A stretch of 64,000 nucleotides of DNA from positions 34,624-98,623 of the forward strand of contig NZ_DASZXR010000001.1 of assembly GCF_035546395.1 (NCBI RefSeq), in the 5' to 3' direction. The translations under genes were made by a program, and so were the position numbers. Source of the stretch: Puia sp. (GTDB lineage: Bacteria > Bacteroidota > Bacteroidia > Chitinophagales > Chitinophagaceae). The notes under the pieces are model-generated. The model did no database searches, had not been told where the DNA came from, and worked only from the letters and a program-made list of their open reading frames with translations. Shown here in pieces: positions 18,671 through 58,996 of the stretch. The stretch's first letter is position 1, and every line of letters begins with the position of its first letter.

Positions 18671-18739
18671 TATGTTAGTATGACACAATGTAAGGATTAT
18701 CCGCAAATCTCCAAAAACAATTTTCCTTACCTTTCCAAT

Positions 18740-19630
18740 ATGAAACCGATCGGACTCTTCCTGCTCTTCTTCGTCTCTGTCAGCCTCCATGCCCAAAAGA
18801 TCATCGACATCTCCTATACCGTCGACCCCCAGGGACGCTACGTATTCACCGCCAACAACAAAGCCTTTTGCACCTATGTCCTGCGGATCGATTTCCCAAC
18901 GCTGGACAATCTCCGCGCCGACCATTCTCTTCCATACGAGACTGAAATAAAGCCCGGCCCGGTGAAGCTCATCACGCTCTCGCCGATCGAAAAGGGAAAG
19001 GACACCAAGCTCAACTACAAAAGCACCAACCGCAAAGGATTGCTCAACCCCGTCGTCAACATCAACTTCACCTATCTCCTCCCGACAGGGCCAGCCATCG
19101 AGACCCAGGCCTACCGCATCCCCAATAAACCCGCCGGTTCCACGCCCGGTGGACAGGACAGCGGTTATTCGGTCCGGCTTCGCGCCAAACAAGGCGACAC
19201 TATTTACGCTGCCCGTCGCGGCACCGTCTCCGCTGTGGATGTCAGCAATACCGAAAATGACGCCGGCGCAAGCACGACCACCAACTGGAACTTCGTCGAG
19301 ATCTTTCATGCCGACGGCTCCTTTGCCGAATACGGCATTCTCAAAAAGGACGGCGCCCTCGTAAAACCCGGGCAGACCGTGGAAGCCGGCGCCCCGATCG
19401 GTATCGTCGGCGGCGATCAGTATGGCCGTGGCTCGGAGGTCCGCTTCAGCGTCAGCTACTATCCCGGGGTGCCCAACACCCAGATCCCACTGCAATTCTG
19501 GACAAAAGGCAACGGCAAGGGGCAGTTGAAACAGGGCGCTTTCTATACCAGCGAGTTCACAAAGGCGCTGCTCACCGCCGAGACCGCCAAAAAACCGTCC
19601 GCAGGCAAGCCGTCCGCAAAAAAACACTAG
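18740..19630 (+). CDS. Secreted M23/LytM-like protein lacking the Zn ligands
   Basis: Start trimmed to MKPIGLFLLFF. GDTIYAARRGTV, NFVEIFHADGSFAEYGIL, VKPGQTVEAGAPIG match the LytM fold; HxxxD and HxH are absent. Confidence 0.75.
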   Translation: MKPIGLFLLFFVSVSLHAQKIIDISYTVDPQGRYVFTANNKAFCTYVLRIDFPTLDNLRADHSLPYETEIKPGPVKLITLSPIEKGKDTKLNYKSTNRKGLLNPVVNINFTYLLPTGPAIETQAYRIPNKPAGSTPGGQDSGYSVRLRAKQGDTIYAARRGTVSAVDVSNTENDAGASTTTNWNFVEIFHADGSFAEYGILKKDGALVKPGQTVEAGAPIGIVGGDQYGRGSEVRFSVSYYPGVPNTQIPLQFWTKGNGKGQLKQGAFYTSEFTKALLTAETAKKPSAGKPSAKKH

Positions 19631-34691: not shown

Positions 34692-34764
34692 ATTGACCGG
34701 TTTGCCATAAGGGTCGTACGCACCCGTATAAATGTTGCATCGGAAATATTCCTTAATTTGAGGA

Positions 34765-37164: not shown

Positions 37165-38358
37165 TAACGGGAAAAAACAAAAGAGGAACAGCGAATGCTG
37201 CATCTCCAGCGTCGACTGGGTCAGCGCAAGCAGCAGCAGCATAATGAGAACCAGCCAGCCGGCCCTGGTCCCCGTTCGTCGGGCGAGATCCACCATCAGC
37301 CCGATGGCGGCAAGGAAGATGCAAAGCCCGATCACCCCGCTACGGACAAAGGTCTCGACGAATTGATTGTGGAAATTATAACCCCGGTACCGCATCTCCG
37401 CAGTAAGATATTTCCGGTTCAACAGGTCCTGGCTGTCGCCCGCGCTCACGCCGATGACCCAGGCGTTCTTTTCGTTGACGATCTCCTCCGCGAATTCCCA
37501 CATGAGCAGCCGCAGCGACACCCCGTTGAAGTGAGCATGCCTGTCGTTCGGATGCTGACCAAGATACCGCCAGTCATCATGCAGGATATCCCGGTATCGC
37601 TGCTGGACCGGGTTGTGCGTGACGGCCAGCGCAGTGCCCCCGGCGATCACCAGCTCGACAACGCCAATGGACCGTCGCGCCTTCAGCCGAAGCCCACGCC
37701 ATCCCGATTTCGACACGATAAAGACCACCGTCAACACCGCCAGCAACAATTTCGAATTCAGCAGGATCATCATCACCGTGAAAAGGGCGATCATTGCCCC
37801 GCGAAAAGCGCCATTCCCCTCCGGACTCAGCAGAAAGATCAACGCGATCAGCACGTAACCCGAGAAAAATACCGCGTTGAGATCGATCACTGCCGTTAGC
37901 TCGTGATAGAAGAAGACCCCCGCCCGTCCCGTGTCCCAAAGCCGGAAACCAGCCACCATCAGGCAAAGGATGCTGATCGCGACGAGCAACCGGCAATACG
38001 CCTTCATCAGCTGCCGGAACCCCTGCCGGTCGATGACGGCGCCGCTGCAAAAGACGAACGGGATGGCGACAAGCGTCGCCTTGCTCTCCACGTGCTTGAA
38101 AGCGGTGCGAAGGTCATGCGTGTAGAATAACCCCGCCACCTCTATCGCAAAAAGGGAGAAATAAGCCAGGAAGAACCGGTTGGAAAAAGCCCTGCGAACG
38201 GCCTCGAGCGGTCTACCTCCATCGGCCAGCCGAAAGATCACCAGCGCGATGATCAGACAGCTATTGAGATTGAACCAGGAGCACAGCGTTGTGCCGATAA
38301 CAGCCATCGTCAATAGGAAAAAGGCCTTCTTTTGAAGGAAAGGAATATGCGCATCCAT
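36997..38358 (-). CDS. O-antigen ligase/Wzy_C-family membrane protein
   Basis: Multi-TM protein; SLRLLMWE, GVSAGDSQDLL, YNFHNQFVETF..SGVIG are Wzy_C-type motifs. The 3' end overlaps the convergent permease by 168 nt. Confidence 0.8.
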   Translation of the reverse strand: MDAHIPFLQKKAFFLLTMAVIGTTLCSWFNLNSCLIIALVIFRLADGGRPLEAVRRAFSNRFFLAYFSLFAIEVAGLFYTHDLRTAFKHVESKATLVAIPFVFCSGAVIDRQGFRQLMKAYCRLLVAISILCLMVAGFRLWDTGRAGVFFYHELTAVIDLNAVFFSGYVLIALIFLLSPEGNGAFRGAMIALFTVMMILLNSKLLLAVLTVVFIVSKSGWRGLRLKARRSIGVVELVIAGGTALAVTHNPVQQRYRDILHDDWRYLGQHPNDRHAHFNGVSLRLLMWEFAEEIVNEKNAWVIGVSAGDSQDLLNRKYLTAEMRYRGYNFHNQFVETFVRSGVIGLCIFLAAIGLMVDLARRTGTRAGWLVLIMLLLLALTQSTLEMQHSLFLFCFFPLLFCFETLRGVHARGAERVIADRREGEGDDADAGQREDPGMHGDAIGEALQPFVGR

Positions 38359-38429
38359 AGCACGATGGAAACGCGGATAAAACTGTTAAAAGTTGCCTTC
38401 GTTGGCACCAATCTTGCAATAATGAAGCA

Positions 38430-39326
38430 ATGACCCGGTACCTGCTACCCTCTGCATTGGTTCTCATACTGTTGCTAGGCAGCTGTAAAAAGGACTCCAC
38501 TCCATCCCAAGAGGGAGGCGGTACCGATACTACCGGGACCAACCCCTCGTCGCCCGCCACAAGCTCAAAAAAAGGGGTCGATTTCAACGTTTATGCCCAG
38601 TATGGAAACTTCGAGACAAATGTGGTCAATCTGAAGGCATTCTGGTATTACACCTGGGGAACGCTCGTCCCGCTTCCCTCCCCGAAGAATTGCGAATTCG
38701 TGTCCATGTTCTGGGGACCCGGCAATATGACCGATGCGAACATCTCGGCCACTCGGCAGTCCAAAGCGCAGGGGACCGTCAAAAATATCATCGCCTTCAA
38801 CGAACCCGATCGCCAGGATCAGTCGAATATGACCGTGTCGCAGGCCCTCGCCTACTGGCCAAAATTGGAAGGTCTCGGCCTGCCCCTCGGCAGTCCCGCC
38901 ACTTCCTGGCCCACCCTTCAATGGTTTTATGATTTCATGGACTCGGCCATCGCCGAAAAAAGGCGCGTGGACTTCATCTGCGTACACATGTATGTCGGAA
39001 CGGACGACAACGCTTTTGTCCAAACGCTGCAAACCGTCTATGACAAATACCACCTCCCTATCTGGATCACCGAATTCGCCACCGCCGACTGGAACGCCAC
39101 ATCTGCCTCCGCGAATCAATATTCCCCCGCCGATGTGCTCGGTTTCATGCAGCGCCTCCTGCCCAGGCTGGACGCACTTCCCTACGTCCAGCGCTATTCC
39201 TGGTTCTCCGGTTCTCCCACCGATCCTACGCTCTGGTCCTCGGCCCTCATCGGCGCCGATGGCAAGCTCACCACCCTCGGCCAATGGTACTCCAACTACC
39301 AACCCAATACGGCGATCAAACCCTAG
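38430..39326 (+). CDS. GH128-like (Glyco_hydro_cc) glycoside hydrolase lipoprotein, putative beta-1,3-glucanase
   Basis: Lipobox LGSC; WYYTWG, FVSMFWG, FNEPD (acid/base), HMY, IWITEF (nucleophile), RYSWF. Confidence 0.85.
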   Translation: MTRYLLPSALVLILLLGSCKKDSTPSQEGGGTDTTGTNPSSPATSSKKGVDFNVYAQYGNFETNVVNLKAFWYYTWGTLVPLPSPKNCEFVSMFWGPGNMTDANISATRQSKAQGTVKNIIAFNEPDRQDQSNMTVSQALAYWPKLEGLGLPLGSPATSWPTLQWFYDFMDSAIAEKRRVDFICVHMYVGTDDNAFVQTLQTVYDKYHLPIWITEFATADWNATSASANQYSPADVLGFMQRLLPRLDALPYVQRYSWFSGSPTDPTLWSSALIGADGKLTTLGQWYSNYQPNTAIKP

Positions 39327-39327
39327 T

Positions 39328-40842
39328 TCAGCGCTTCCGGTACAATACCCAGATATCATTGATCGTATTGATCCCCTTCGAATCCAGAATGGCGTCGATC
39401 CCCCATAACAGCCTCGAAGAATACAACACCCGCCGGTAACCCAGGCTATCCAGCCACCTTAGCTGCCCCTTCAGCTGATCATACGTACCCGCAACATACT
39501 CCGCCTCACGGGGCATCAGCCGCAGGGAATCCTCCGGCCCCAGCCGACGGAACCGCAAATTCGTCGCCGCCTCCCGGTAAAAGACGAACGGCAACCGGTG
39601 TTCCGTCTCAAACGGCGTTCGGTTGACCGTCCAGATCGTCACGGGCCGGTCCGCAAACTTACCTTTCAGCAAAACAGTAAAATAAAGCGCCTGTGAATAG
39701 GGCGTATATAACAGCACCACCAACAGGAACCCATTCAGTCCAATGCTGAACAACGCAAGACCGTTAAACAGCCGCCGCATGCCCTTCCGCTGCCGCCACC
39801 ACCAATCGATCAGCCCGGGCAAACCCCAGCCGACGATCAACGGAAGGACGTTCAGCACCGGGAAAAGGAATCGTTCCTCTTTATGCGCGACAAGACAATG
39901 CCCCAGGATAAAAAATAGCACTGCCAGCGTTAACGGTTGACGAAGCTGGCGCACAATCGCCTCCTTGAATCCCCCGTACAACAAAACGAGACTCAGCGGC
40001 GGCGTGACGATCACCGCGGCCAGCACTCCGACGTACAACAGGAACGAGGAGGTCCCCATCGACGCCGCCTTCCCTTCGACGATATTCACCTCGTAATAGG
40101 TATAGGGCGTAAAAACCCACTCGTGGTAGAAGGCTGCGTCAAGCACGGTATTCAAACCCATTCCGGCGATGAATCCGAGCGCCAGGGGAAGCATCCGCCG
40201 CCGTTCTTCGCGGACCGTCAGCATCCACACCCCGAATCCGGCAATGGCAAAAGCCGTTTGGAAACGGGCATAGAAGGCCAGGCTGAAAACAAACCCGGTC
40301 GCCAGCGCCACCCACCACCCTCTGCCGTCCTTACGATTGGAAAGATCATAACCAAAGACCCCTCCAAAGAATAAAAAGGAGGAAAGCATTTCGCTGCTGA
40401 ACAGCGTTCTTGTATAAGGAAGGAGCCACGAAAAATTCAGGATCAGCAACACTCCGAACAGCACCCGCCGGTCGCGTTGGAAATAATACAATGCCATTGC
40501 GTTGAACAGCACAAAAAGCAACAGACCAAAGATCATCCGCAACAGGCCCAGCTGGGAGTAGGGATCGTGCATCCCCAGCTCCGAGCAAAGCCAGGAATAA
40601 CCCGAGAAGAGATACACCTGCAACGTCGGTCGCAGATGCGCCGCAAATTCCCAAACCTGTCCCGCAGCCGATGGCCGGTGCAGCTGCCACGAGGAGAATT
40701 CGATGATCTGAAAATACTGATCGGGATGATAGATGCCCACGGCCGTCCAACAAAGGATGATCTGAACGAGAAGGGAAGCCAATAACAATATCTGTAGCCG
40801 GCGATCATCGCGCAGAATGCCTTTCAAGGTTTCGAAATACAT
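39328..40842 (-). CDS. GT-C membrane glycosyltransferase, Alg9/PIG-B (GT22)-like mannosyltransferase
   Basis: HPDQYFQIIEF, WEF..HLR, RTLFSSE, ARFQ, HKEERFLFP parallel PIG-B/GPI10 motifs; many TM segments. Confidence 0.75.
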   Translation of the reverse strand: MYFETLKGILRDDRRLQILLLASLLVQIILCWTAVGIYHPDQYFQIIEFSSWQLHRPSAAGQVWEFAAHLRPTLQVYLFSGYSWLCSELGMHDPYSQLGLLRMIFGLLLFVLFNAMALYYFQRDRRVLFGVLLILNFSWLLPYTRTLFSSEMLSSFLFFGGVFGYDLSNRKDGRGWWVALATGFVFSLAFYARFQTAFAIAGFGVWMLTVREERRRMLPLALGFIAGMGLNTVLDAAFYHEWVFTPYTYYEVNIVEGKAASMGTSSFLLYVGVLAAVIVTPPLSLVLLYGGFKEAIVRQLRQPLTLAVLFFILGHCLVAHKEERFLFPVLNVLPLIVGWGLPGLIDWWWRQRKGMRRLFNGLALFSIGLNGFLLVVLLYTPYSQALYFTVLLKGKFADRPVTIWTVNRTPFETEHRLPFVFYREAATNLRFRRLGPEDSLRLMPREAEYVAGTYDQLKGQLRWLDSLGYRRVLYSSRLLWGIDAILDSKGINTINDIWVLYRKR

Positions 40843-48784: not shown

Positions 48785-49600
48785 ATGGCCTTAATCACCC
48801 TGACATCAGATATCGGCCAAAAAGACTATCTCATTGGGGCTATCAAAGGCCAGCTGTTGCAGCAGGACCCGGGCTTTCAGCTGGTGGACATCTCTCATGA
48901 GCTGTCCCCTTTCAATTACCCACAGGCCGCCTATGTCTGCCGCAACGCGATCCGACATTTCCCGCCCTTTACTTATCACCTCATTTTGGTCAATCTGTTC
49001 GAGAAAAAGCCCGAACAACTCCTGTTCGCCTTCCATAAGGAACAATACCTGCTCTGCGCCGACAATGGTCTGCTCACCATGATCCTGGAAGGCCGGCCCG
49101 AGATGGTCATCGGCCTGCCTCTCGACCGAACGGCCGTCAAAAATACCCTCTACTGCGTTCGCACCATGGGCCAGGCCATCCAACAGCTCATACAGGGCGC
49201 CGGCCTGCTCTCCATCGGTAACCCGGACACCCCGTTCACCGAAAAGAACCACCTCCGCCCGGTCTTCGGCGACAACTGGATCGAAGGCCAGATCATTTTC
49301 ATCGATCATTTCGAGAACGTCATCGTCAATATCACCCGCGAAGAGTTCGAACAGCAACGCCGCGGTCGCGGCTTTCGCATCGTTTTCAAACGCGACGAGA
49401 CGATCGATAAGATAAGCGAGACCTATGCCGATGTCGGGGAAGGCGAAAAGCTGGCCCTCTTCAACTCCGCCGGCTACCTAGAGATCGCCATCCAGAAAGG
49501 CAATGCCGCCGGCCTCTTCGGCCTGCAGGACTTTACCGAGCAATCCCAACACCAGCAGAGTCGGCTTTTTTACCAGACAGTCAAGGTGTTCTTTGAATAG
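48785..49600 (+). CDS. SAM hydrolase/SAM-dependent halogenase superfamily protein (DUF62, SAM_HAT)
   Basis: LITLTSDIG, VDISHEL, CADNGLL, GQIIFIDHFENVIVNI, TYADV..GE.LALFNSAGYLEIA. Confidence 0.88.
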   Translation: MALITLTSDIGQKDYLIGAIKGQLLQQDPGFQLVDISHELSPFNYPQAAYVCRNAIRHFPPFTYHLILVNLFEKKPEQLLFAFHKEQYLLCADNGLLTMILEGRPEMVIGLPLDRTAVKNTLYCVRTMGQAIQQLIQGAGLLSIGNPDTPFTEKNHLRPVFGDNWIEGQIIFIDHFENVIVNITREEFEQQRRGRGFRIVFKRDETIDKISETYADVGEGEKLALFNSAGYLEIAIQKGNAAGLFGLQDFTEQSQHQQSRLFYQTVKVFFE

Positions 49601-49697: not shown

Positions 49698-52600
49698 ATG
49701 CGCTTCAACAAGATCAACAATATCACCGGATGGATCGTAGGCCTCTTCGCAACAACCGTATATATCATGACCATGGAGGCGACCGGTAGCTTCTGGGATT
49801 GCGGCGAATTCATTTCCAGCTGTTTCAAACTCGAGATCCCCCACCCCCCGGGCGCCCCGCTCTTCGCCCTGATGGGTCGCTTCTTCATCATCCTTTTCGG
49901 CGATAATCCCCATACCGCCGCCCGCGGCGTCAACTTCATGAGCGCCCTGGCCAGCGGCATGTCCATCCTCTTCCTCTTCTGGACCATCACCCACTTCGCC
50001 AGGAAGATCGTAACCAAAGCAACCCCGGCCGCGGAACCCGATAAACAACAGACATTCCTGATAATGGCCGCCGGCGTCGTCGGAGCCATCGCCTACACCT
50101 TCTGCGACTCCTTCTGGTACAGCGCAGTAGAAGGCGAAGTATACGCCTCTTCCGCCTTCTTCACCGCCCTCGTCTTCTGGGCCATCCTGAAATGGGAGCA
50201 CAACGCGGACAAAGCAGGCTCCGATAAATGGATCGTCTTCATCTTCTACATGATGGGCCTGTCCATCGGCGTCCACCTGCTCAACCTCCTGACCATTCCC
50301 GCCATCGTGATGGTCTACTACTTCAAACGCTACCGGCCGACCCTCTGGGGCTCCATCCTCGCCTTCGTCGTCGGCTGCGCCATCACCGGCATCGTCCAGG
50401 TCATCGTCATCCAGTATACCATCAAAGGCGCCGGCTACTTCGACATCTTCTTCGTCAACTCCCTCAGCCTGCCCTTCTTCAGCGGCTTCGGCTTCTATTT
50501 CCTGGCGCTGGCCGCCCTACTCACCTGGGGCCTGCTGTTCAGGCAAGCCACCGTCACCGCCAACCGTATGAGGATATGGCTGATGGCCTTCATCTTCATC
50601 GTCTCCGCCCCCGTGCTCATCGGCTCGGCACACGGCGGCGCCGGCTATATCGTTAAGATCCTGGTGGGCCTGGCCATCGGTTGGGTCGCAGGTTATTTTA
50701 TAAAGAAAGAAGCCCTTCCCTCATTCAAACTGGGGCTCTGGTGCTTTGCCTTCGTCCTCCTCGGCTATTCCACCTACTTCACCACCATGATCCGCAGCAA
50801 TGCGAACCCTCCGGTGGATATGTATAATGTCGATAACCCCTGGAGCCTCGTCGGTTACCTCAGCCGCGAACAATACGGCGACTGGCCCATCGTCTATGGA
50901 CCCGATTTCCAGGACCAGGCGCCCACCATTGATGGCTCGGACAACTACGTCAAAGGAAAGGATAAATATGAAGTGGCCGGCAAGACGGTGATCCAGGACT
51001 GGGGCAACACCCCCTCGGCCCACGTCTTCCCCCGTATGTGGAGCTCCCAGAACGATCGCCACGAGGTCGATACCTACAAGGCTTACGGTGGCGTAGCCGA
51101 AGGCGATAACCCCACCATGGCGAACAATATCCGCTACTTCCTCACCTATCAGAATTGGTGGATGTATGGCCGTTACTTTATGTGGAACTTCTCCGGGAAA
51201 CAGAATGACCTCGAAGGCTTCGGCAACCCCCGCGATGGCAACGCCATCACCGGGATCCCCTTCATCGACAATTTCTTCCTCGGCGACCAAAGCAAGCTGC
51301 CGGATACGATCCACACGAAGAACAAGTCCTACAACAGGATGTATATGCTTCCGCTGATCCTGGGACTCATCGGTCTGATCTTCCAGGCCTATCGCTCCCG
51401 GCACGACTTCGCGATCGCCGCCCTTCTCTTCTTCTTTACCGGCTTCGCCATCGTCATCTACCTCAACCAGGCCGGCCTCCAGCCCCGCGAAAGAGACTAT
51501 GCCTTCGCCGGTTCCGAATATGCCTTCGCGATATGGATCGGCCTCGGGGTCCTCGCCGTGGCGGAAAATCTTACGCGTCGCCGCTGGCTCAAAAAGCCCG
51601 CCCTGGCCAACTATTTCGCTGCCGGTCTTTGCTTTTTGGCCGTACCCGTTCTCATGGGCAGCCAGGAGTGGGATGATCACGACCGCAGCAAAAAGACCCT
51701 GCCCCGCGACCTCGCAAAAGATTATCTCGAATCCTGTCCGCCCAACGCCATCCTCTTCTCCTTCGGCGATAACGATACCTATCCCCTCTGGTACGCCCAG
51801 GAAGTGGAAGGCATCCGGCCTGACGTCCGGGTGATGGTCAACACCCTCCTCGGCTCCGACTGGTATATGAACCAGCTGCGCTATAAGGTCAACGAGAACG
51901 CACCGTGGGACATTATTTTCACGCCCGGGCAGATCGCGGGCGACAAGCGCAACGTAGCCTACTTCACCGACCGCGTTCCCGGCTTCGACCAAAGCAAATA
52001 TTACGATCTCTATACCATGCTCAAGGACGTCGTGGCCAGCGACGATCCGCGCTTTACCACCGCCGCTGACAACGGCCAGACCTTCAACCTCGTGCCCGTG
52101 CATAAATTCTCGCTCCCCGTCGACGCACAGGCGGCCCGCAATATCGGCACGATCCATCCCGGCGACAGCGCCCTCTCCGAGCTGCAGCTTGACATTCCCA
52201 AGAACCGCAACTACCTGCTCAAAAGTGACCTGGCCATGCTTTCGGTCATCGCGGGCAGCAAATGGAAACGTCCCATCTGCTTCACCTCCCCCCAAGACCT
52301 CCAAAGCCTCGGGCTGGACAAATATGTCCGCCTCCGCGGCATGGTCTACCAGCTCGTTCCGCTCGAAGGCAGCCAGGTCGACATCGACGATTCGTATAAA
52401 GCGATCATGGAGAAGTTCGCTTACGGCAACGCCGGCACGCCCGGTGTCTACTATGACGAGGAGAACCGCCGCCATCTCAACAGCATCAAATTCACGCACG
52501 CCCAGGTAGCCATGGGCCTCGCCATGGCCGGAAAGAAGGACTCCGCCCGCCGCGTCCTCGAACAATACGATCGCAACGTCCTCGAGTCGAATATGCCCTA

Positions 52601-52961
52601 CGGCATGACCTCCAACCAGGGCAACCTGCACGACTATTTCTCCTTTGACTTCCTGCAGGCCTGCTATATGGCCGGCGACACCACGCTGGCCCATAAGGTC
52701 GCCGCCTCGTTGAAAAAAGATCTGACCCAGCAGATGCGCTACTACGCATCCTTCAGCGAATCACCGATGACCGACGAGCAACTCGCCGTCAACGCCCAGA
52801 TGCTTATGCAGGGCAAGGGTGGCAATCTCTCGGATATCCAGGCAAGATATTTTGCCAACGATATCCTCTCCACCTATCGGATGATCCTGCAGATGGCCGA
52901 TCTCGAAAAACAGTACAAAGCGGGCCCGCCATCCCCCTCGGAAATAAATCCAAAGCCTTAA
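49698..52961 (+). CDS. DUF2723/TMEM260-like membrane glycosyltransferase, paralog 1
   Basis: Start trimmed to MRFNKINN. FWDCGEF, HPPGAP, SAVEGEVYA, GVHLLNLL, PRERDYAF, GDNDTYPLWY. Confidence 0.9.
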   Translation: MRFNKINNITGWIVGLFATTVYIMTMEATGSFWDCGEFISSCFKLEIPHPPGAPLFALMGRFFIILFGDNPHTAARGVNFMSALASGMSILFLFWTITHFARKIVTKATPAAEPDKQQTFLIMAAGVVGAIAYTFCDSFWYSAVEGEVYASSAFFTALVFWAILKWEHNADKAGSDKWIVFIFYMMGLSIGVHLLNLLTIPAIVMVYYFKRYRPTLWGSILAFVVGCAITGIVQVIVIQYTIKGAGYFDIFFVNSLSLPFFSGFGFYFLALAALLTWGLLFRQATVTANRMRIWLMAFIFIVSAPVLIGSAHGGAGYIVKILVGLAIGWVAGYFIKKEALPSFKLGLWCFAFVLLGYSTYFTTMIRSNANPPVDMYNVDNPWSLVGYLSREQYGDWPIVYGPDFQDQAPTIDGSDNYVKGKDKYEVAGKTVIQDWGNTPSAHVFPRMWSSQNDRHEVDTYKAYGGVAEGDNPTMANNIRYFLTYQNWWMYGRYFMWNFSGKQNDLEGFGNPRDGNAITGIPFIDNFFLGDQSKLPDTIHTKNKSYNRMYMLPLILGLIGLIFQAYRSRHDFAIAALLFFFTGFAIVIYLNQAGLQPRERDYAFAGSEYAFAIWIGLGVLAVAENLTRRRWLKKPALANYFAAGLCFLAVPVLMGSQEWDDHDRSKKTLPRDLAKDYLESCPPNAILFSFGDNDTYPLWYAQEVEGIRPDVRVMVNTLLGSDWYMNQLRYKVNENAPWDIIFTPGQIAGDKRNVAYFTDRVPGFDQSKYYDLYTMLKDVVASDDPRFTTAADNGQTFNLVPVHKFSLPVDAQAARNIGTIHPGDSALSELQLDIPKNRNYLLKSDLAMLSVIAGSKWKRPICFTSPQDLQSLGLDKYVRLRGMVYQLVPLEGSQVDIDDSYKAIMEKFAYGNAGTPGVYYDEENRRHLNSIKFTHAQVAMGLAMAGKKDSARRVLEQYDRNVLESNMPYGMTSNQGNLHDYFSFDFLQACYMAGDTTLAHKVAASLKKDLTQQMRYYASFSESPMTDEQLAVNAQMLMQGKGGNLSDIQARYFANDILSTYRMILQMADLEKQYKAGPPSPSEINPKP

Positions 52962-53009
52962 TTTCGGGAAAATTTTAAACACCCAAGTACCGCGAAAAAT
53001 TCGAATACA

Positions 53010-56000
53010 ATGCGTTTTAACAGAGTCAACAACATCGTCGGCTGGATCGTGGGACTCATCGCCTGCACCGTCTTCGTCATGACCATGGAGCCCACAGGTA
53101 GCTTTTGGGACTGCGGCGAGTTCGTTTCCAGCTGCTATAAGCTCCAGATCCCCCACCCTCCCGGCGCCCCGCTGTTCGTGCTCATGGGCCGCTTCTTTAT
53201 CATCCTCTTCGGCGACAATCCCCTTACAGCCGCCCGCGGCGTCAACTTCATGAGCGCCATCGCCAGCGGCCTGTCCATTCTCTTCCTGTTCTGGACCATT
53301 ACCCACTTCGCACGCAAGCTCGTACAGGGGGGTATCACCACTGTAGAACCTGATTCCAAACAAACTTTCAACATCATGGCCGCCGGCGTCGTCGGCGCCC
53401 TGGCCTATACCTTCTGCGACTCCTTCTGGTACAGCGCCGTCGAAGGCGAAGTATACGCCTCCTCCGCCTTCTTCACCGCCCTCGTCTTCTGGGCCATCCT
53501 GAAATGGGAGCACAACGCGGACAAGGAAGGCTCCGATAAATGGATCGTCTTCATCTTCTTCATGATGGGCCTTTCCATCGGCGTCCACCTGCTCAACCTC
53601 CTGACCATCCCCGCCATCGTGATGGTCTATTATTTCAAGCGCTTCAAACCCACCACCTGGGGAACCATCTTCGCCTTCCTCATCGGCTGCATCATCACCG
53701 GCGTCGTACAGATCGTCGTGATCCAGTATACCATCAAAGGCGCCGGAGCCCTCGATATCTTCTTTGTCAATTCACTCCACCTGCCCTTCTTCTCCGGCTT
53801 CGGGGTCTACTTCTTTTTACTGGCCGCTTTGCTGGCCTGGGGGCTCTCCTTTAAGACGCAGACGGTCACGGCCAATCGCATCCGCCTGTGGATCGCCGCC
53901 TTCGTACTCATCATCATGCTCCCCCTCCTTTCCAATGGGTCGGGCGGCAGCCGCATCCTGATGCTGATCCTCGGCCTGGCAGCGGCCTGGGTAGCGGGCT
54001 ATTTCATCACGGGCGAAGCCCTGGCAAAATTCAAGATCGCCCTCTGGTGTTTCGCCTTCATGCTCCTGGGCTACTCCACCTACTTCACCACCATGATCCG
54101 CAGTAATGCCGATCCCGGGGTGGATATGTACAATGTCGATAACCCCGTCAGCCTCGTGGGCTATCTCAGCCGCGATCAGTACGGCGACTGGCCCATTCTC
54201 TATGGCCCGGACTTCCAGGACCGCGCCCCCCGAGTTCCCGCCGGTCCCCTCTATGTAAAAGGTAAAGAGAAGTACGAAGTGGCCGGAAAGGTCTACGCAA
54301 CCGACTGGGGCAGTACCCCCTCCTCCCATATCTTCCCCCGGATGTGGGACGGCGGTAACGACCGCGGCCAGATCGACTGCTACCGCACCTTTGGCAACGT
54401 CGCCGAAGGCGACAATCCCACCATGCTGGACAATTTCCGGTATTTCTTCAAATACCAGAATGGGGTCATGTTCCTCCGCTATTTTATGTGGAACTTCTCG
54501 GGAAAGCAAAATGACCTACAGGGTTTCGGGAATATCCGCGACGGGAATTTCATCACAGGCATTCCCTTCCTCGACAACTGGATGTATGGCGATCAAAGCA
54601 AAATGCCGGATTCCATCCGCAAAAATAACAAGTCCTACAACCGCATGTTCCTCCTGCCCTTCATCCTGGGCCTCCTCGGGTTGGTCTACCAGGCTACCCG
54701 TAACAAGGGCGATTTCTGGGTGACGGGCCTGCTGTTCTTCTTCACCGGCTTCGCCATCGTGGTCTACCTGAACCAGGCCGGCTACCAGCCGCGCGAACGG
54801 GACTACGCCTATGCCGGCGCCTGTTATGCCTTTGCGATCTGGATCGGGCTTGGCGTCCTCTGGATAAAGGATATCCTGGCGCAATCCGCCTTTAAAACCT
54901 CCCCGAAAATGGCCAGCTATGCCGCCGCCGGTCTCTGTTTCTTTGGCGTGCCGGTACTGATGGGCAGCCAGGAATGGGATGACCACGACCGCAGCAAGAA
55001 GACCCTGGCCCGCGACATCGGCCGGGACTACCTCGAGTCCTGCCCGCCCAACGCAATCCTCTTCTCCTTCGGCGACAACGACACCTACCCCCTCTGGTAT
55101 GCCCAGGAAGTGGAAGGCATCCGCCCCGACGTCCGGGTAATGAACTACAGCCTGCTGGGCACTGACTGGTATATCAATCAGTTACGCTATAAAGTAAACC
55201 AGAGTGCCCCGACGGACGTGATCTTTACCCCCGAGCAGATCCAGGGCAATACCCGTGACGCCGTCGTCATCAACGCGCTGAACGGCTTCGATCAGAACAA
55301 ATACTACGATCTCTACGAAATTCTCAAGGACGTGGTCGGCAGCGACGATTCCCGCTACCAGACCTCCTCCGATGAAGGCGATGTATACAACTTCCTGCCT
55401 ACCCGCAAGTTGTCCGTCCCCGTGGACTCCAACCTCGTCCGCAGCAACGGCACCGTACAGGCGGGCGACAGCGTCGTCACCCAGCTCCGGCTCGATATCT
55501 CCAAGAACAAGAACTACCTGTTCAAGAACGAGCTGGCCGTCCTGGCGATCATCGCCGCCAACAAATGGCAACGCCCCATCTGCTTCAACTCCACCTACGA
55601 GCTGGAAGACCTTGGCCTGACAAAGTATATCCGGCAGGATGGCCTCGCCGGCCGCCTCGTCCCGGTCGAAAGCAAGAATGCCAACTTCGGGTTCTATAAC
55701 ACACCCGTCGCCTACAACAACATCATGACCAAGTTCTCCTATGGCAACGCCATCACACCCGGCGTCTATTACGACGAGGAGAACCGCCGCCATCTCAACA
55801 CCCTCCGCGCGGCCCATGCCCAACTGGCGCTGACCCTCGTCGCGGAAGGAAAAAAGGATTCGGCAAAGAACATCCTCGAACATTTCGACAAGAATGTCTA
55901 CGAGCCGAACTTCCCCTACGGGATGACCTCCAACCGCGGCAACCAGCACGATCGTATCTCGATGAGCTTCCTGCTGGCCAGCTACCAGTCGGGTGATCTC

Positions 56001-56273
56001 ACGCTCGCCCAAAAGGTCGCGGCCTCCCTGAAAAAAGATCTCAACCAGCAGATGCGGTACTACGCCTCGCTCGGTGAGCCGATGTCCAACGAACAGCTGG
56101 CCGTCAACGCCCAAATGGCCCTGCAGGGCAAAGGCGGGAACCTCTCCGATCGCCAGGGAGGGTCCATCGCACAGGATATCTTAAGCACCTTCCAGATGCT
56201 ACTGCAGCTGGATGACTGGGATAAACAGTTTGGGCACGCAAAGCCCTCACAGGTTCAGCAGCCTGCTAAATAA
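53010..56273 (+). CDS. DUF2723/TMEM260-like membrane glycosyltransferase, paralog 2
   Basis: Same motifs as paralog 1 and colinear over about 1090 aa; 48-nt spacer. Confidence 0.9.
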   Translation: MRFNRVNNIVGWIVGLIACTVFVMTMEPTGSFWDCGEFVSSCYKLQIPHPPGAPLFVLMGRFFIILFGDNPLTAARGVNFMSAIASGLSILFLFWTITHFARKLVQGGITTVEPDSKQTFNIMAAGVVGALAYTFCDSFWYSAVEGEVYASSAFFTALVFWAILKWEHNADKEGSDKWIVFIFFMMGLSIGVHLLNLLTIPAIVMVYYFKRFKPTTWGTIFAFLIGCIITGVVQIVVIQYTIKGAGALDIFFVNSLHLPFFSGFGVYFFLLAALLAWGLSFKTQTVTANRIRLWIAAFVLIIMLPLLSNGSGGSRILMLILGLAAAWVAGYFITGEALAKFKIALWCFAFMLLGYSTYFTTMIRSNADPGVDMYNVDNPVSLVGYLSRDQYGDWPILYGPDFQDRAPRVPAGPLYVKGKEKYEVAGKVYATDWGSTPSSHIFPRMWDGGNDRGQIDCYRTFGNVAEGDNPTMLDNFRYFFKYQNGVMFLRYFMWNFSGKQNDLQGFGNIRDGNFITGIPFLDNWMYGDQSKMPDSIRKNNKSYNRMFLLPFILGLLGLVYQATRNKGDFWVTGLLFFFTGFAIVVYLNQAGYQPRERDYAYAGACYAFAIWIGLGVLWIKDILAQSAFKTSPKMASYAAAGLCFFGVPVLMGSQEWDDHDRSKKTLARDIGRDYLESCPPNAILFSFGDNDTYPLWYAQEVEGIRPDVRVMNYSLLGTDWYINQLRYKVNQSAPTDVIFTPEQIQGNTRDAVVINALNGFDQNKYYDLYEILKDVVGSDDSRYQTSSDEGDVYNFLPTRKLSVPVDSNLVRSNGTVQAGDSVVTQLRLDISKNKNYLFKNELAVLAIIAANKWQRPICFNSTYELEDLGLTKYIRQDGLAGRLVPVESKNANFGFYNTPVAYNNIMTKFSYGNAITPGVYYDEENRRHLNTLRAAHAQLALTLVAEGKKDSAKNILEHFDKNVYEPNFPYGMTSNRGNQHDRISMSFLLASYQSGDLTLAQKVAASLKKDLNQQMRYYASLGEPMSNEQLAVNAQMALQGKGGNLSDRQGGSIAQDILSTFQMLLQLDDWDKQFGHAKPSQVQQPAK

Positions 56274-56283
56274 GACGTTGAAC

Positions 56284-56307
56284 AAAACCCGCCTCTGGCG
56301 GGTTTTT
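56284..56307 (+). terminator. Intrinsic terminator after the DUF2723 pair
   Basis: AAAACCCGCC-TCT-GGCGGGTTTTT. Confidence 0.8.
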
Positions 56308-56339
56308 AGTTTAGACTCAAATAGTGTAAATTGTATCAA

Positions 56340-57437
56340 ATGATAGGGTACCATTTCAAAAACTACGATCCCAACGACGAAAGCAAGCCCAGGTTCGATC
56401 AGCTGCTGGATATTTTCATGCAGCTGCTCAGCTACACGAACGGGGACGTGGGCGAAGCGTTGCAATGGATGAACCAGCTGGATAAAGAATACCAGCTGTC
56501 CGACGACGAATATGGCATGGGGGATTTTATCGAAGACCTGAAAGACAAAGGATACATCGACGATAACAAAGAAACCGGTGAGATCACCATCACTCCAAAG
56601 ACGGAGCAGGGTATCCGCCGCCGCTCGCTGGAAGAGATCTTCGGGAAGTTAAAAAAGACAAAACAGGGGAATCACAACACCTTTAAACCGGGTGGCGGCG
56701 ATGAGGCGAACCCCGAGACCCGTCCCTTCCGATTCGGCGACCAGCTGGAACAGATCGACTTCACCGAATCCATCCGCAACGCGCAGATCAACCACGGCAT
56801 CGACGCCTTCAATATGCAGGAAGACGACCTGAAGATCCGCGAGACGGACTTCAAGGCCCAGACCTCCACCGTGCTGATGATCGACATCTCTCACTCGATG
56901 ATCCTGTATGGGGAGGACCGCATCACGCCCGCCAAAAAAGTGGCCATGGCCCTCAGCGAGCTGATCACGACAAAGTATCCCAAGGACACCCTCGATATCG
57001 TCGTCTTCGGCAACGATGCCTGGCCGGTGGAGATAAAAGACCTCCCGTATTTGCAGGTAGGCCCCTACCATACCAATACAGTGGCCGGACTGGAGCTGGC
57101 CATGGACATCCTCCGGCGCCGAAGAAACGCCAACAAACAGATCTTCATGATCACCGACGGGAAGCCTACCTGTCTGAAGGTCGGGAAACGATATTACAAA
57201 AACAGCTTCGGCCTCGACCGGAAGATCACTTCCCGCTGCCTCAACCTGGCCGCACAATGCAAAAAGCTGAAAATACCCATTACTACCTTCATGATCGCCA
57301 GCGATCCCTATCTGCAGCGATTCGTCAACGAGTTCACTGAAACTAATAATGGCAAGGCCTTCTTTGCCTCCCTCGATCGTCTCGGCAGCTTCATCTTCCG
57401 TGACTTCGAATCCGGGAAACGAAAAACGGTCTACTAG
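56340..57437 (+). CDS. vWA-domain protein
   Basis: ATG at 56340 (MIGYHF). STVLMIDISHSM (MIDAS DxSxS), TNTVAGL, MITDGKP. Confidence 0.9.
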   Translation: MIGYHFKNYDPNDESKPRFDQLLDIFMQLLSYTNGDVGEALQWMNQLDKEYQLSDDEYGMGDFIEDLKDKGYIDDNKETGEITITPKTEQGIRRRSLEEIFGKLKKTKQGNHNTFKPGGGDEANPETRPFRFGDQLEQIDFTESIRNAQINHGIDAFNMQEDDLKIRETDFKAQTSTVLMIDISHSMILYGEDRITPAKKVAMALSELITTKYPKDTLDIVVFGNDAWPVEIKDLPYLQVGPYHTNTVAGLELAMDILRRRRNANKQIFMITDGKPTCLKVGKRYYKNSFGLDRKITSRCLNLAAQCKKLKIPITTFMIASDPYLQRFVNEFTETNNGKAFFASLDRLGSFIFRDFESGKRKTVY

Positions 57438-57463: not shown

Positions 57464-58996
57464 ATGGACATCACAAAGATCACGACATTAGGACAACTGA
57501 AGAAAGCCGGCTATAAGAATCGATCCGTAAAAGAAGAGATACGGGAAAATCTCATCCGCAAACTAAAAAATAAAGAAACCACTTTTCCGGGTATCGTTGG
57601 CTATGAGGATTCGGTTATCCCCGACACGGAACGGGCCCTCCTGTCCCGCCACAATATCCTGTTCCTCGGTCTCCGCGGACAGGCTAAGACGCGAATGGCC
57701 CGGCAGATGATCGACCTGCTCGACGAATGGGTCCCCTTCGTCACAGGAAGCGAAATAAACGACGACCCCTTTCGCCCCATCTCCAAGTTCGCCCGCAACC
57801 TCGTTGCCTCCAAAGGCGACGACACCCCCATCTCCTGGCTGCACCGCAGCGAACGCTATGGTGAAAAACTGGCCACACCCGACGTCAGCGTCGCCGATCT
57901 CATCGGGGACATCGACCCGATCAAGGCCGCAAACCTCCGCTTGAACTTCGCCGATGAAGAAGTCATCCACTTCGGGATCATCCCAAAAAGCAACAGGGGT
58001 ATTTTTGTTATCAATGAAATACCTGATTTACAAGCCCGTATACAGGTTTCCTTGTTTAATATTTTAGAAGAAGGCGATATCCAGATCCGCGGCTTCAAGC
58101 TCCGGATGCCGCTCGATATGCTCTTCGTCTTCACCGCCAACCCCGAGGACTATACCAACCGGGGCTCCATTGTGACGCCCCTCAAGGATCGTATCGAAAG
58201 CCAGATCCTCACCCACTATCCCCGGAATATCGAGACGGCCCTGGCAATTACCGAACAGGAAGCCGACATCCATGAGGAGCAGAAAGGCCGCGTGATCATC
58301 AGCGACCTGGTCAAGCGCCTCATCGAACAGGTCTCCTTCGAGGCCCGCAGCAGCGAATACGTCGACAAGAAAAGCGGCGTCTCCGCCCGTCTGACCATCG
58401 CCGCCTTCGAGAACGCCGTCAGTGCCGCCGAACGCCGCGCCATCCTCAACAACGAGAAAGAAACGCCCGTCTGGATGAGCGATCTGGTCGGCATTATCCC
58501 CTCCATCACCGGGAAGATCGAGCTGGTCTACGAAGGCGAACAGGAAGGGCCCTACCAGGTGGCCTTCAACCTGCTGGAAAAAGCCTTCCGCACCCAGTTC
58601 ATCAACTATTTTCCAAACCCCGATCAGCTGAAGAAGCGGAAGGCGGATACCCGCGACGACAACCCCTTCCGGCCCGTCACCCATTGGTTCGACAAGGGCA
58701 ACCATCTCAACCTGTTCTTCAACACCCCCGACTCGGAGAAGATACAGCAGCTGTATAAAGTGGATGGGTTACACGCGCTCGTGAAGAAATACTTCAAGCA
58801 CGCCAACGAACGCGAATCGGCCCTGCTCATGGAATTCGTACTCCATGGCCTCGCGGCGTATTCGTTGATCAGTAAAAAAGTGGTGGAAGGAAAGATCGAG
58901 TTCAAAGACCTCATCGGCTCCATGGTCAACCTCGGCTCTTCGGGCGGCAGCTTCGGTAACGAGGAAGACGACCTGGAAAGCGACGATTTCAATTAG
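57464..58996 (+). CDS. AAA+ ATPase, Mg-chelatase subunit I-like, partner of the vWA protein
   Basis: ILFLGLRGQAKT (Walker A variant), FVINEIPDL (Walker B variant), FTANPEDYTNRG, PLKDRI (Arg finger), GVSARL. Confidence 0.88.
   Translation: MDITKITTLGQLKKAGYKNRSVKEEIRENLIRKLKNKETTFPGIVGYEDSVIPDTERALLSRHNILFLGLRGQAKTRMARQMIDLLDEWVPFVTGSEINDDPFRPISKFARNLVASKGDDTPISWLHRSERYGEKLATPDVSVADLIGDIDPIKAANLRLNFADEEVIHFGIIPKSNRGIFVINEIPDLQARIQVSLFNILEEGDIQIRGFKLRMPLDMLFVFTANPEDYTNRGSIVTPLKDRIESQILTHYPRNIETALAITEQEADIHEEQKGRVIISDLVKRLIEQVSFEARSSEYVDKKSGVSARLTIAAFENAVSAAERRAILNNEKETPVWMSDLVGIIPSITGKIELVYEGEQEGPYQVAFNLLEKAFRTQFINYFPNPDQLKKRKADTRDDNPFRPVTHWFDKGNHLNLFFNTPDSEKIQQLYKVDGLHALVKKYFKHANERESALLMEFVLHGLAAYSLISKKVVEGKIEFKDLIGSMVNLGSSGGSFGNEEDDLESDDFN

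Follow-up and report, generated by a model that had tools for sequence, protein, structure and literature searches.

Hundreds of envelope proteins of Bacteroidota are modified by a general O-glycosylation system, whose essentiality has been reported for gut Bacteroidales. The enzyme that attaches the glycan has been unassigned since the system was described. In a 2025 review, the oligosaccharyltransferase (OTase), the ligase and the core flippase of this system are called 'undiscovered', the pathway is likened to eukaryotic O-mannosylation, and homologs of O-mannosylation enzymes are considered worth seeking (PMC12871550). According to the same review, the conserved sugar linked to Ser/Thr of the protein is mannose, the common reducing-end unit is mannose with rhamnose and glucuronic acid (Tannerella being the exception), and the two-step model of the pathway requires no fewer than two transferases in the periplasm, namely an OTase and a ligase. 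Truncations of the inner-core glycan are reported as not tolerated. Here we describe two adjacent genes, A and B, which encode a new paralogous pair within the known glycosyltransferase family 117 (GT117, formerly DUF2723). They are located on a 64,000-nt window, by which we mean the whole stretch of DNA analysed (positions 34,624-98,623 of the forward strand of contig NZ_DASZXR010000001.1, assembly GCF_035546395.1), from Puia sp., a soil Puia-like bacterium; positions below are in window numbering unless a locus name precedes them. The first-pass annotation of this DNA had proposed DUF2723 enzymes as the initiating transferase of the general system. Its premise that this transferase is not firmly assigned agrees with the review and with a preprint, in which the OTase 'has yet to be identified' as of 27 July 2026 (bioRxiv 10.64898/2026.07.27.740950).

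The closest described enzyme is human TMEM260 (GT117; structures 9rql, 9rqm and 9rqn), a protein-specific O-mannosyltransferase that serves the IPT domains of a few receptors. Its residue Asp52 is required for O-mannosylation, as shown by a D52A knock-in (Larsen et al., PMC10214176). The GT39 enzymes (yeast Pmt1/Pmt2/Pmt4, POMT1/2 and actinobacterial Pmt) are GT-C glycosyltransferases that O-mannosylate exported proteins from polyprenyl-phosphate-mannose and form paralog dimers; the first luminal loop carries their catalytic acidic residue. The GT66 enzymes PglB, AglB and STT3, in which a GT-C module is followed by a large extracytoplasmic C-terminal domain, N-glycosylate Asn at a short sequon from pyrophosphate-linked oligosaccharides. 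General periplasmic protein O-glycosylation in Gram-negatives, which is the role under discussion here, is performed by PglL/PilO-type enzymes of the Wzy_C superfamily, which use undecaprenyl-pyrophosphate-linked glycans and have no strict sequon (PMC3643930).

In the literature to July 2026, we found no paper that joins DUF2723, GT117 or TMEM260 with Bacteroid*. Within the literature searched, the proposal that GT117 is the initiating enzyme of the general system, O-mannosylating exported proteins from undecaprenyl-phosphate-mannose, is unpublished, and it competes with a published alternative, YfhO. We give this proposal a probability of about 45%.

GT117 identity and conserved catalytic residues of the two genes

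The locus comprises two genes, the spacer between them and a hairpin.

49698..52961, + strand: gene A, GT117/TMEM260-like GT-C glycosyltransferase, 1087 aa; derived, faster-diverged paralog
52962..53009, + strand: A-B intergenic spacer, 48 nt, no terminator-like hairpin
53010..56273, + strand: gene B, GT117/TMEM260-like GT-C glycosyltransferase, 1087 aa; conservative paralog, nearest to single-copy orthologs
56278..56314, + strand: intrinsic-terminator-like GC hairpin with U run, directly after gene B

Two full-length, colinear genes had been described here before, and the open reading frames (1087 aa each, same strand) confirm them. Gene A starts with ATG and its product begins with MRFNK, in agreement with the N-termini of orthologs; an upstream TTG (49659) as start is not supported by these N-termini. 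In a BLASTP alignment, A and B were 69% identical (81% positives) and colinear over the full length, with 9 gap positions. The closest named relative of the gene B product is a Puia dinghuensis protein (85% identity), which carries the NCBI name 'glycosyltransferase family 117 protein'. The hairpin after gene B was overlooked by the terminator scan and then confirmed by RNA folding (-18.2 kcal/mol, z -4.86; 0 of 200 shuffles were equally stable). A sigma-70 promoter scan is uninformative for Bacteroidota. Since the 48-nt spacer lacks a terminator and a strong hairpin follows B, A and B are probably co-transcribed, as a likely two-gene operon.

Both products match PF11028 (TMEM260-like) at aa 34-213/214, with 241 bits for A (E 9e-72) and 241.5 bits for B (E 6.5e-72), the gathering cut-off being 24.2 bits. 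This is the sole Pfam family matched by A or B at E<=0.01. Neither protein matched the Pfam models of YfhO, Wzy_C, STT3, PMT or MIR, neither has a WWDYG-type motif, and no NCBIfam model matches A or B. The precomputed domains on B and its homologs are PF11028, PF28497 (DUF8416) and PF28495 (TMEM260_2).

Among PDB sequences, the only relative is human TMEM260 (9rql), found with the single sequence (E 8e-10) and with the family profile (E 1.2e-25); no other GT-C was detected by the profile search, neither PMT nor STT3 being among the matches. The profile aligns with TMEM260 in two colinear blocks, which are the catalytic module and the last transmembrane (TM) helices together with the GDNDT domain. 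Profile positions 549-670 align with TMEM260 residues 360-480 (E 1.7e-9 for this stretch), and in the single-sequence alignment residues 670-725 of B pair with residues 422-477 of TMEM260. The residue D34 of WDCGEF, which comes after TM1 and an Arg-rich N-terminus, aligns with D52 of the TMEM260 motif GDSGE, and the HPPG motifs of both proteins are also aligned.

D34 is invariant in 71 homologs and likewise in a larger alignment of 125 homologs. Over the 71 diverse homologs, 32 columns are invariant, among them D34, H49, E145, H193, R364, R444, R490, D598, R661 and D689. Among the 119 columns with a family-wide conservation of 90% or more, A retains 119 and B 117. All four motifs singled out in the first-pass annotation (WDCGEF, HPPG, EGEVY and GDNDT) are present in both copies, far beyond chance. 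Judged from their sequences, both copies are catalytically intact.

A model of B was built with AlphaFold2 (AF2) from the 71-homolog alignment (pLDDT 92.2, pTM 0.92) and has the GT-C fold. All significant Foldseek matches of this model in the PDB are GT-C enzymes. The top matches are AglB, PglB and STT3 (E 2e-5 to 5e-4, probability 1.00), and Pmt1/Pmt2, AftA, ALG3, ALG9, Pmt4 and PimE come later. Taken together, the PF11028 match, the alignment with TMEM260 and the invariant catalytic residues provide good support for membership in GT117, and the earlier identification of A and B as DUF2723/TMEM260-like GT-C proteins holds. We conclude that A and B are almost certainly GT117 GT-C enzymes whose active site faces the periplasm.

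The motifs and the domain layout are as follows.

49794..49811, + strand: WDCGEF of A, first periplasmic loop, D34 predicted catalytic base
53106..53123, + strand: WDCGEF of B, first periplasmic loop, D34 predicted catalytic base
53154..53165 (B) and 49842-49853 (A), + strand: HPPG, invariant H49 and G52
53442..53456 (B) and 50130-50144 (A), + strand: EGEVY, invariant E145
55071..55085 (B) and 51765-51779 (A), + strand: GDNDT, invariant D689, in an alpha/beta domain just past the last TM helix
53010..54104, + strand: B aa 1-365, N-terminal multi-helix GT-C catalytic membrane module (AF2, hydropathy, PF11028, and Foldseek matches to AglB, PglB, STT3 and Pmt)
54105..54653, + strand: B aa 366-548, predicted periplasmic insert between the TM blocks, beta hairpins and helices (AF2)
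54654..54986, + strand: B aa 549-659, second TM-helix block with RERDY motif (invariant D598 and Y599)
54987..56270, + strand: B aa 660-1087, C-terminal periplasmic region (AF2 secondary structure)
51924..52448, + strand: A ~aa 743-917, beta-rich periplasmic domain, the part most diverged from B and from the single-copy ancestor

The periplasmic insert of B contains the invariant residues R444, Y458, R490, Y491 and G498. In the AF2 model, the alpha/beta domain with GDNDT opens the C-terminal region of B; a beta-rich domain follows at aa 741-895 and helical repeats at aa 898-1075. The helical-repeat region matched designed or TPR-like repeat proteins only weakly (E 0.003-0.8); some homologs have TPR Pfam matches or the JGI name 'TPR repeat protein', and A and B have none. 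Sequons are conserved in the C-terminal region at matching positions, residues 823 and 948 of A and 820 and 950 of B.

Compared with TMEM260, A and B share PF11028, the two colinear blocks, the catalytic Asp and HPPG, and in both the GT-C fold is combined with a C-terminus on the non-cytoplasmic side, which in the bacterial enzymes is of helical-repeat type as predicted by the model. The bacterial proteins, however, are ~360 aa longer and have the 180-aa insert (aa 366-548 in B) and the beta-rich domain, two parts to which no stretch of TMEM260 aligned. Their carrier would be undecaprenyl instead of dolichyl, and their proposed role would be proteome-wide at a three-residue sequon, unlike the few receptors served by TMEM260. 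GT39 enzymes are among the fold matches (6p25, E 7.6e-3; 9i5l; 9e61), but sequence similarity to A and B is not detectable, A and B have no PMT or MIR domains, and the non-membrane domains differ. The layout of GT66 enzymes resembles that of A and B, but the TM-scores are low (0.24-0.40) and the identity is 10-12%; GT66 differs in its Asn acceptor and its pyrophosphate-linked donors. PglL/PilO-type enzymes belong to the unrelated Wzy_C family.

A duplication retained in the Puia lineage

The history of the paralogs was reconstructed from a neighbour-joining (NJ) tree and from the ratio of nonsynonymous to synonymous divergence (dN/dS) per domain, with the single-copy Flavitalea gene as outgroup. 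The tandem pair is present in the same synteny in Puia dinghuensis and two Puia metagenome-assembled genomes (MAGs), which together with the window gives four genomes. The shared order is a short-chain dehydrogenase/reductase (SDR) gene, an S-adenosylmethionine (SAM) hydrolase-like gene, two GT117 genes, a VWA gene and an AAA gene, then MurB on the opposite strand. A single copy is found at the corresponding locus in Flavitalea flava and in most other Chitinophagaceae among the loci examined.

In the NJ tree, the A copies and the B copies of the four Puia-clade genomes formed separate orthologous clades, which indicates that the duplication predates the divergence of these genomes; B groups with the Flavitalea single copy. 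The dS was 0.9 between A and B and ~2.0 between either copy and Flavitalea. Because the former value is well below the latter, the duplication occurred after the split from Flavitalea. The duplication is thus specific to the Puia lineage, and both copies have been retained under purifying selection (dN/dS 0.25 between A and B, 0.09-0.19 among A orthologs and 0.11-0.12 among B orthologs).

The two copies did not diverge evenly. The dN to the single-copy Flavitalea gene was 0.23 for A and 0.17 for B, and at aa 741-915 the identity to the Flavitalea gene was 70% for B and 52% for A. In this beta-rich domain, dN/dS was 0.47 between A and B and 0.13-0.15 among A orthologs. Since A has diverged from Flavitalea yet its orthologs are constrained, we read A as a derived copy that underwent a burst of change followed by purifying selection, and B as the copy that resembles the single-copy ancestor.

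By region, the identity of A and B is 83% in the N-terminal part (aa 1-280), 57% at aa 281-360, 70% in the periplasmic insert, 84% around GDNDT, 49% at aa 741-915 and 66% in the C-terminal helical part. The earlier description of the membrane cores as nearly identical was therefore overstated (83% in the N-terminal module, 57% at aa 281-360); a gradient of divergence towards other regions is real but moderate. Recent gene conversion between A and B was considered and rejected, because orthologs are closer than paralogs in every domain, which argues against recent homogenization. The dS between A and B is 0.57 in the N-terminal module and ~1.0-1.3 in most other regions; an older partial gene conversion or codon constraint is possible.

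Tandem pairs also arose independently in Parapedobacter tibetensis (L048:10001-16833) and in a Bacteroidales MAG (L078:5613-12111). In both cases the copies are each other's closest relatives, and the catalytic residues are kept in all of them; the Parapedobacter copies have WDTGEF and HQPG instead of WDCGEF and HPPG.

The first-pass annotation had suggested that A and B came to differ in acceptor or glycan specificity through the duplication. The one positive sign is the asymmetric divergence of A, mostly periplasmic, followed by strong constraint (dN/dS 0.13-0.15), which suits a distinct function better than plain redundancy. What weighs against it is that the regional divergence in the three independent tandem pairs follows the family-wide conservation profile. 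The beta-rich C-terminal domain is also among the least conserved regions family-wide, and since the least similar regions of the paralogs are the least conserved ones of the family, much of the gradient reflects ordinary differences in constraint. In addition, 117-119 of the 119 conserved positions are kept. We therefore regard a difference in acceptor range between A and B as rather doubtful.

The alternative is that A and B do not have different specificities, and either form a heterodimer like Pmt1-Pmt2 or are partly redundant copies that serve dosage or regulation. To this alternative we give even odds, and heterodimerization or partial redundancy is at least as likely as different specificities. 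Eukaryotic protein O-mannosyltransferases work as paralog dimers, and the Pmt1-Pmt2 structure 6p25 is among the fold matches of the B model. Adjacency on the same strand, the 48-nt distance and the one terminator after B suggest co-expression, and essentially all conserved and catalytic residues are retained in both copies. The constraint-driven pattern of divergence in the three tandem pairs also fits. Conversely, both copies have been kept in four diverged genomes, and a single copy suffices in most Bacteroidota, which indicates that a heterodimer is not required by the family. The tandem pair is in itself a modest finding: a gene that is normally single-copy and of a housekeeping type was duplicated in one lineage, and both copies were retained. 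The pair could be used to ask which domain sets the choice of acceptor.

A candidate initiating enzyme of general O-glycosylation

In the mechanism that we infer for the donor, the acceptor, the role in general O-glycosylation and any functional difference between A and B, the N-terminal bundle of TM helices would form the active site, and Asp34 of WDCGEF in the first periplasmic loop would act as catalytic base. As donor, the enzymes would use a polyprenyl-phosphate sugar, for which undecaprenyl-phosphate-mannose is the most likely candidate; a GT2 enzyme resembling Dol-P-Man synthase would make it on the cytoplasmic face, and it would then be flipped. The large periplasmic part (the 180-aa insert and the 430-aa C-terminal region) would present the acceptor, most likely Ser/Thr of Sec-exported proteins. 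The enzymes would thereby attach the conserved core mannose at the D-(S/T)-X sites of the general O-glycosylation system of Bacteroidota. After the tandem duplication that followed the Flavitalea split, B kept the ancestral state and A changed mostly in its periplasmic domains. It is fairly probable that GT117 here is a protein O-hexosyl- or O-mannosyltransferase.

The family is widespread. An exhaustive search over 1.84 billion cluster representatives yielded 12,194 clusters (50% identity) at E<=1e-3 and 1,403 at E<=1e-30. Nearly all of the best 150 clusters are ~1,000 aa or more in length, and the full-length ones are 36-56% identical. Among the named clusters are Sphingobacterium (NCBI 'protein O-mannosyl-transferase family'), Porphyromonas sp. 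and a Flavobacteriales bacterium; for the Porphyromonas sp. ortholog (P0171), the identity to B was 41% over residues 2-964. A scan of a genome collection gave at least 597 confirmed relatives. The best 80, which are mostly full-length, belong to Chitinophagales, Sphingobacteriales, Bacteroidales (Odoribacter, Tangfeifania and others) and Flavobacteriales, with one Chlorobiota MAG.

Long-form, full-length GT117 was also observed in MAGs labelled Chlorobiota (L052), Chlorobi (P0425) and candidate division KSB1 (P0470). The Chlorobiota/KSB1 proteins are 57-62% identical to a protein from a Bacteroidales MAG, and L052 is ~40% identical to B of the window. If the binning of these MAGs is right, GT117, and perhaps the glycosylation system, may reach beyond Bacteroidota within the Fibrobacteres-Chlorobi-Bacteroidetes (FCB) group.

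Orthologs of A and B have been found in O-glycoproteomes, one DUF2723 protein of ~124 kDa in each of three studies. According to the tables of these studies, PGN_0192/PG2144 of P. gingivalis (123.7 kDa) and Tanf_01470 of T. forsythia (124.6 kDa) are located in the inner membrane and are themselves O-glycoproteins. The same holds for BWX39_09045 of P. intermedia (124.9 kDa, 15 TM), which is O-glycosylated at residues 823 (DTL) and 844 (DSI). The glycans at these two residues place the C-terminal region of GT117 in the periplasm. In the orthologs, the inner-membrane location and the periplasmic C-terminus are thus established.

Essentiality in P. gingivalis was taken from a transposon sequencing (Tn-seq) study that lists 463 putatively essential genes (Klein et al. 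2012, Table S1). PGN_0192 is on this list, under COG1807 and without a polar-effect flag, and so is phosphomannomutase (Klein et al. 2012). Essentiality is what would be expected of an initiating transferase, and PGN_0192 shows it in one species. A GT2 enzyme (PGN_1026/BT0251) is essential in both P. gingivalis and B. thetaiotaomicron; its KEGG assignment is K00721, which we take to be dolichol-phosphate mannosyltransferase. An essential pathway for polyprenyl-phosphate-mannose together with an essential GT117 as its consumer fits the hypothesis of O-mannosylation.

The window also provides evidence from potential acceptors. Sequons of the type D-[ST]-[AILVMT] were counted in 11 envelope and 15 cytoplasmic proteins, a small sample with classes hand-assigned from Pfam results. 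There were 29 sequons in 6462 aa of envelope proteins and 10 in 5142 aa of cytoplasmic proteins, i.e. 4.49 vs 1.94 per 1000 aa (~2.3-fold; Fisher p 0.023). In this small, hand-assigned sample, the counts agree with the earlier statement that such sequons are frequent in secreted proteins of the window, and the excess would fit a general O-glycosylation system that is active in this organism.

Several observations weigh against GT117 as the initiating enzyme. In every bacterial GT117, donor and acceptor are matters of inference. Because the best structural neighbours of the B model use pyrophosphate-linked oligosaccharide donors, transfer of a glycan en bloc would be possible. Tannerella, whose glycan core departs from the mannose rule, has a DUF2723 protein all the same. 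The Tn-seq study also tabulates the genes whose essentiality is confined to P. gingivalis and B. thetaiotaomicron, and PGN_0192 is not among them. Homolog searches seeded with proteins from a Bacteroidales MAG (P0165) and an 'uncultured Bacteroides sp.' MAG (L069) returned only environmental MAGs, and GT117 was not confirmed in B. fragilis, B. thetaiotaomicron, F. johnsoniae or Elizabethkingia. The locus of A and B turned up only in metagenome DNA from soil and rhizosphere and in none of the RNA runs. To these points are added a deacetylase gene that follows GT117 in many genomes and a set of findings on YfhO, both of which are considered below with the explanations they favour.

The first of these explanations is that a YfhO-family GT-C enzyme is the initiating O-oligosaccharyltransferase, and that GT117 performs another periplasmic step that depends on a polyprenyl-phosphate sugar. 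We consider this unlikely. The YfhO family of Bacteroidota, like GT117, consists of multi-pass inner-membrane GT-C candidates for the same missing step; it differs from A and B in its Pfam family and in being shorter. Characterized YfhO-type enzymes glycosylate teichoic acids and are not known to glycosylate proteins, which counts against this explanation. An in-silico preprint predicts YfhO, not GT117, as the OTase because it matches Pmt4 in HHpred, is broadly conserved, has 12 TM helices and is predicted to be essential in many Bacteroidales (bioRxiv 10.64898/2026.07.27.740950). The call for at least two periplasmic transferases in the two-step model (PMC12871550) speaks on the same side. 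In P. intermedia, the inner membrane contains both YfhO (92.7 kDa, 14 TM) and DUF2723, which are abundant at similar levels; this co-expression suggests that the two probably perform different steps and do not replace each other.

Essentiality was also compared between the two families. COG4485 is presumably the COG of YfhO. The COG4485 gene of P. gingivalis, PGN_1968/PG2022 (2199886-2202411), encodes an 841-aa hypothetical protein and is essential, as is the COG1807 gene PGN_0192 (Klein et al. 2012, Table S1). If COG4485 is YfhO, essentiality does not separate YfhO from GT117. In favour of GT117, its only characterized member is a protein Ser/Thr O-mannosyltransferase (PMC10214176), and the protein-linked sugar of the bacterial system is mannose. 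In the preprint, YfhO is described as absent from P. gingivalis, some Alistipes and endosymbionts, and P. gingivalis has both the glycosylation system and DUF2723. The COG4485 gene PGN_1968 would be at odds with this reported absence if COG4485 is YfhO.

According to the remaining explanation, the acceptor is not a protein, and GT117 decorates lipid A or lipopolysaccharide core, capsule or another glycan from a polyprenyl-phosphate sugar. By analogy with ArnC/ArnD/ArnT and LgmA/LgmC/LgmB, the donor might then be an amino sugar produced with an adjacent NodB-type deacetylase. Lipids or glycans are the acceptors of many bacterial GT-C enzymes. In at least 14 loci, a gene for a deacetylase of the PF01522 NodB/CE4 type is located 27-165 nt downstream of GT117 on the same strand. 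These loci belong to Bacteroidales, Flavobacteriales, Chlorobiota and Porphyromonas, and in P. gingivalis PG2145/PGN_0193 likewise follows PG2144. Four of the deacetylase genes are listed here.

L049:13207-13917; L052:13063-13647; L064:11235-11864; L083:3923-4591: deacetylase genes, ~200 aa, no obvious signal peptide, cytoplasmic-looking

The lipid A aminosugar transferases ArnT and LgmB are likewise GT-C enzymes encoded beside a CE4/NodB deacetylase, and PGN_0192 is assigned to COG1807, the ArnT-type COG. However, the paired deacetylase is a generic CE4 enzyme, closest to PdaB, PgdA and NodB and under every curated cut-off. It has no homolog in the window or in any of the Chitinophagales or Sphingobacteriales loci examined, and PG2145 is not on the P. 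gingivalis essential list (Klein et al. 2012). We therefore rejected the deacetylase as proof of an Arn-like pathway and kept it as a minor rival. Lipid A decorations are normally dispensable, whereas PGN_0192 is essential; the family profile recovers TMEM260 and no ArnT among PDB sequences. The predicted helical-repeat C-terminus is of the sort to which a role with protein clients is ascribed in TMEM260 and TMTC enzymes (PMC10214176). On this balance, a non-protein acceptor is improbable.

Returning to GT117 as the initiating transferase, the claim made in the first-pass annotation is favoured by the mannose core, the inner-membrane orthologs, the essentiality of PGN_0192 and of the K00721 GT2 and the occurrence in at least four orders, all of which is circumstantial, and is challenged by YfhO and by the deacetylase pairing. 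More tentatively, and at somewhat less than even odds, long-form GT117 could initiate a phylum-wide system in which YfhO and/or Wzy_C-type enzymes act later and tandem pairs split the acceptors or heterodimerize. If GT117 is the initiating enzyme, it would offer a target in gut and oral Bacteroidota that is essential, specific to the phylum and exposed to the periplasm, TMEM260-type O-mannosylation would be ancient and common to bacteria and animals, and a route to engineering sequon-directed O-glycosylation would be available. A question that has been open for more than 15 years becomes testable on the named genes PGN_0192, Tanf_01470 and BWX39_09045.

Neighbouring genes and other features of the window

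In Chitinophagales, the conserved neighbours of GT117 are the SDR and SAM-hydrolase-like genes upstream and the VWA and AAA pair downstream. In the window, the gene directly upstream of A (48785-49600, + strand) encodes a protein resembling SAM hydroxide adenosyltransferase/(R)-SAM hydrolase (PF01887 and PF20257), and its adjacency to GT117 is kept in 13 Chitinophagales loci. In Bacteroides, yfhO adjoins genes of the S-adenosylhomocysteine/SAM cycle (sahH or mtnN-luxS; bioRxiv 10.64898/2026.07.27.740950). Given the heavily O-methylated O-glycans, the SAM-cycle neighbours of GT117 and yfhO form a parallel, which may be a coincidence. Directly downstream of B are a VWA-domain gene (56331-57437, + strand) and a gene for an AAA ATPase of the MoxR/Mg-chelatase-like type (57464-58996, + strand). 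This pair follows GT117 in 24-27 Chitinophagales loci and is 75-96% identical across genera, exceeding the identity of GT117.

Further upstream, three genes form a compact group (36997-40842).

36997-38358, - strand: Wzy_C (O-antigen-ligase-like) membrane protein, a weak match (36.8 bits vs a cut-off of 31.7)
38430-39326, + strand: Glyco_hydro_cc gene
39328-40842, - strand: GT22/Alg9-like GT-C mannosyltransferase (Pfam)

Later periplasmic steps, or the missing 'ligase', might be sought in the GT22 and Wzy_C proteins. The first-pass annotation had seen a local cluster of lipid-linked-sugar enzymes here. The GT22/Alg9-like and Wzy_C genes are indeed present, but a functional unit with A and B is not supported: the groups are 9-11 kb apart, and Flavitalea lacks this linkage, the equivalent flank there containing unrelated genes. 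We therefore rejected a single glycosylation cluster of GT22, glycoside hydrolase (GH), Wzy_C and A/B. Between the GT22/Wzy_C group and A lie GH2, AraC, PhyH, OmpA-like, DinB and SDR genes on mixed strands, and no conserved linkage of the group to GT117 was found. A polyprenyl-phosphate-sugar synthase is not encoded in the window.

Other genes of the window were observed in passing. A fusion protein of 865 aa (6911-9508, - strand) combines a carboxylesterase domain (PF00135, aa 32-495) with a complete DUF2891 (aa 543-860). In a 948-aa GH3 protein (16781-19627, - strand), the GH3 domains begin at ~aa 450 and the N-terminal ~450 aa have no Pfam match; the GTG start called for this gene may be too far upstream. 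Three large permease genes of the MacB_PCD/FtsX type are located within 16 kb (21549-23921, - strand; 32262-34886, - strand; 34765-37164, + strand), the latter two of which are divergent, with starts that overlap by ~120 nt as called. Finally, a gene at 3244-4014 (+ strand), beside an AraC regulator and a TonB-dependent/OMP_b-brl_3 receptor, encodes a protein of the phosphoenolpyruvate (PEP)-mutase family (PF13714, E 3e-70), which may be a phosphonate or isocitrate-lyase-family enzyme.

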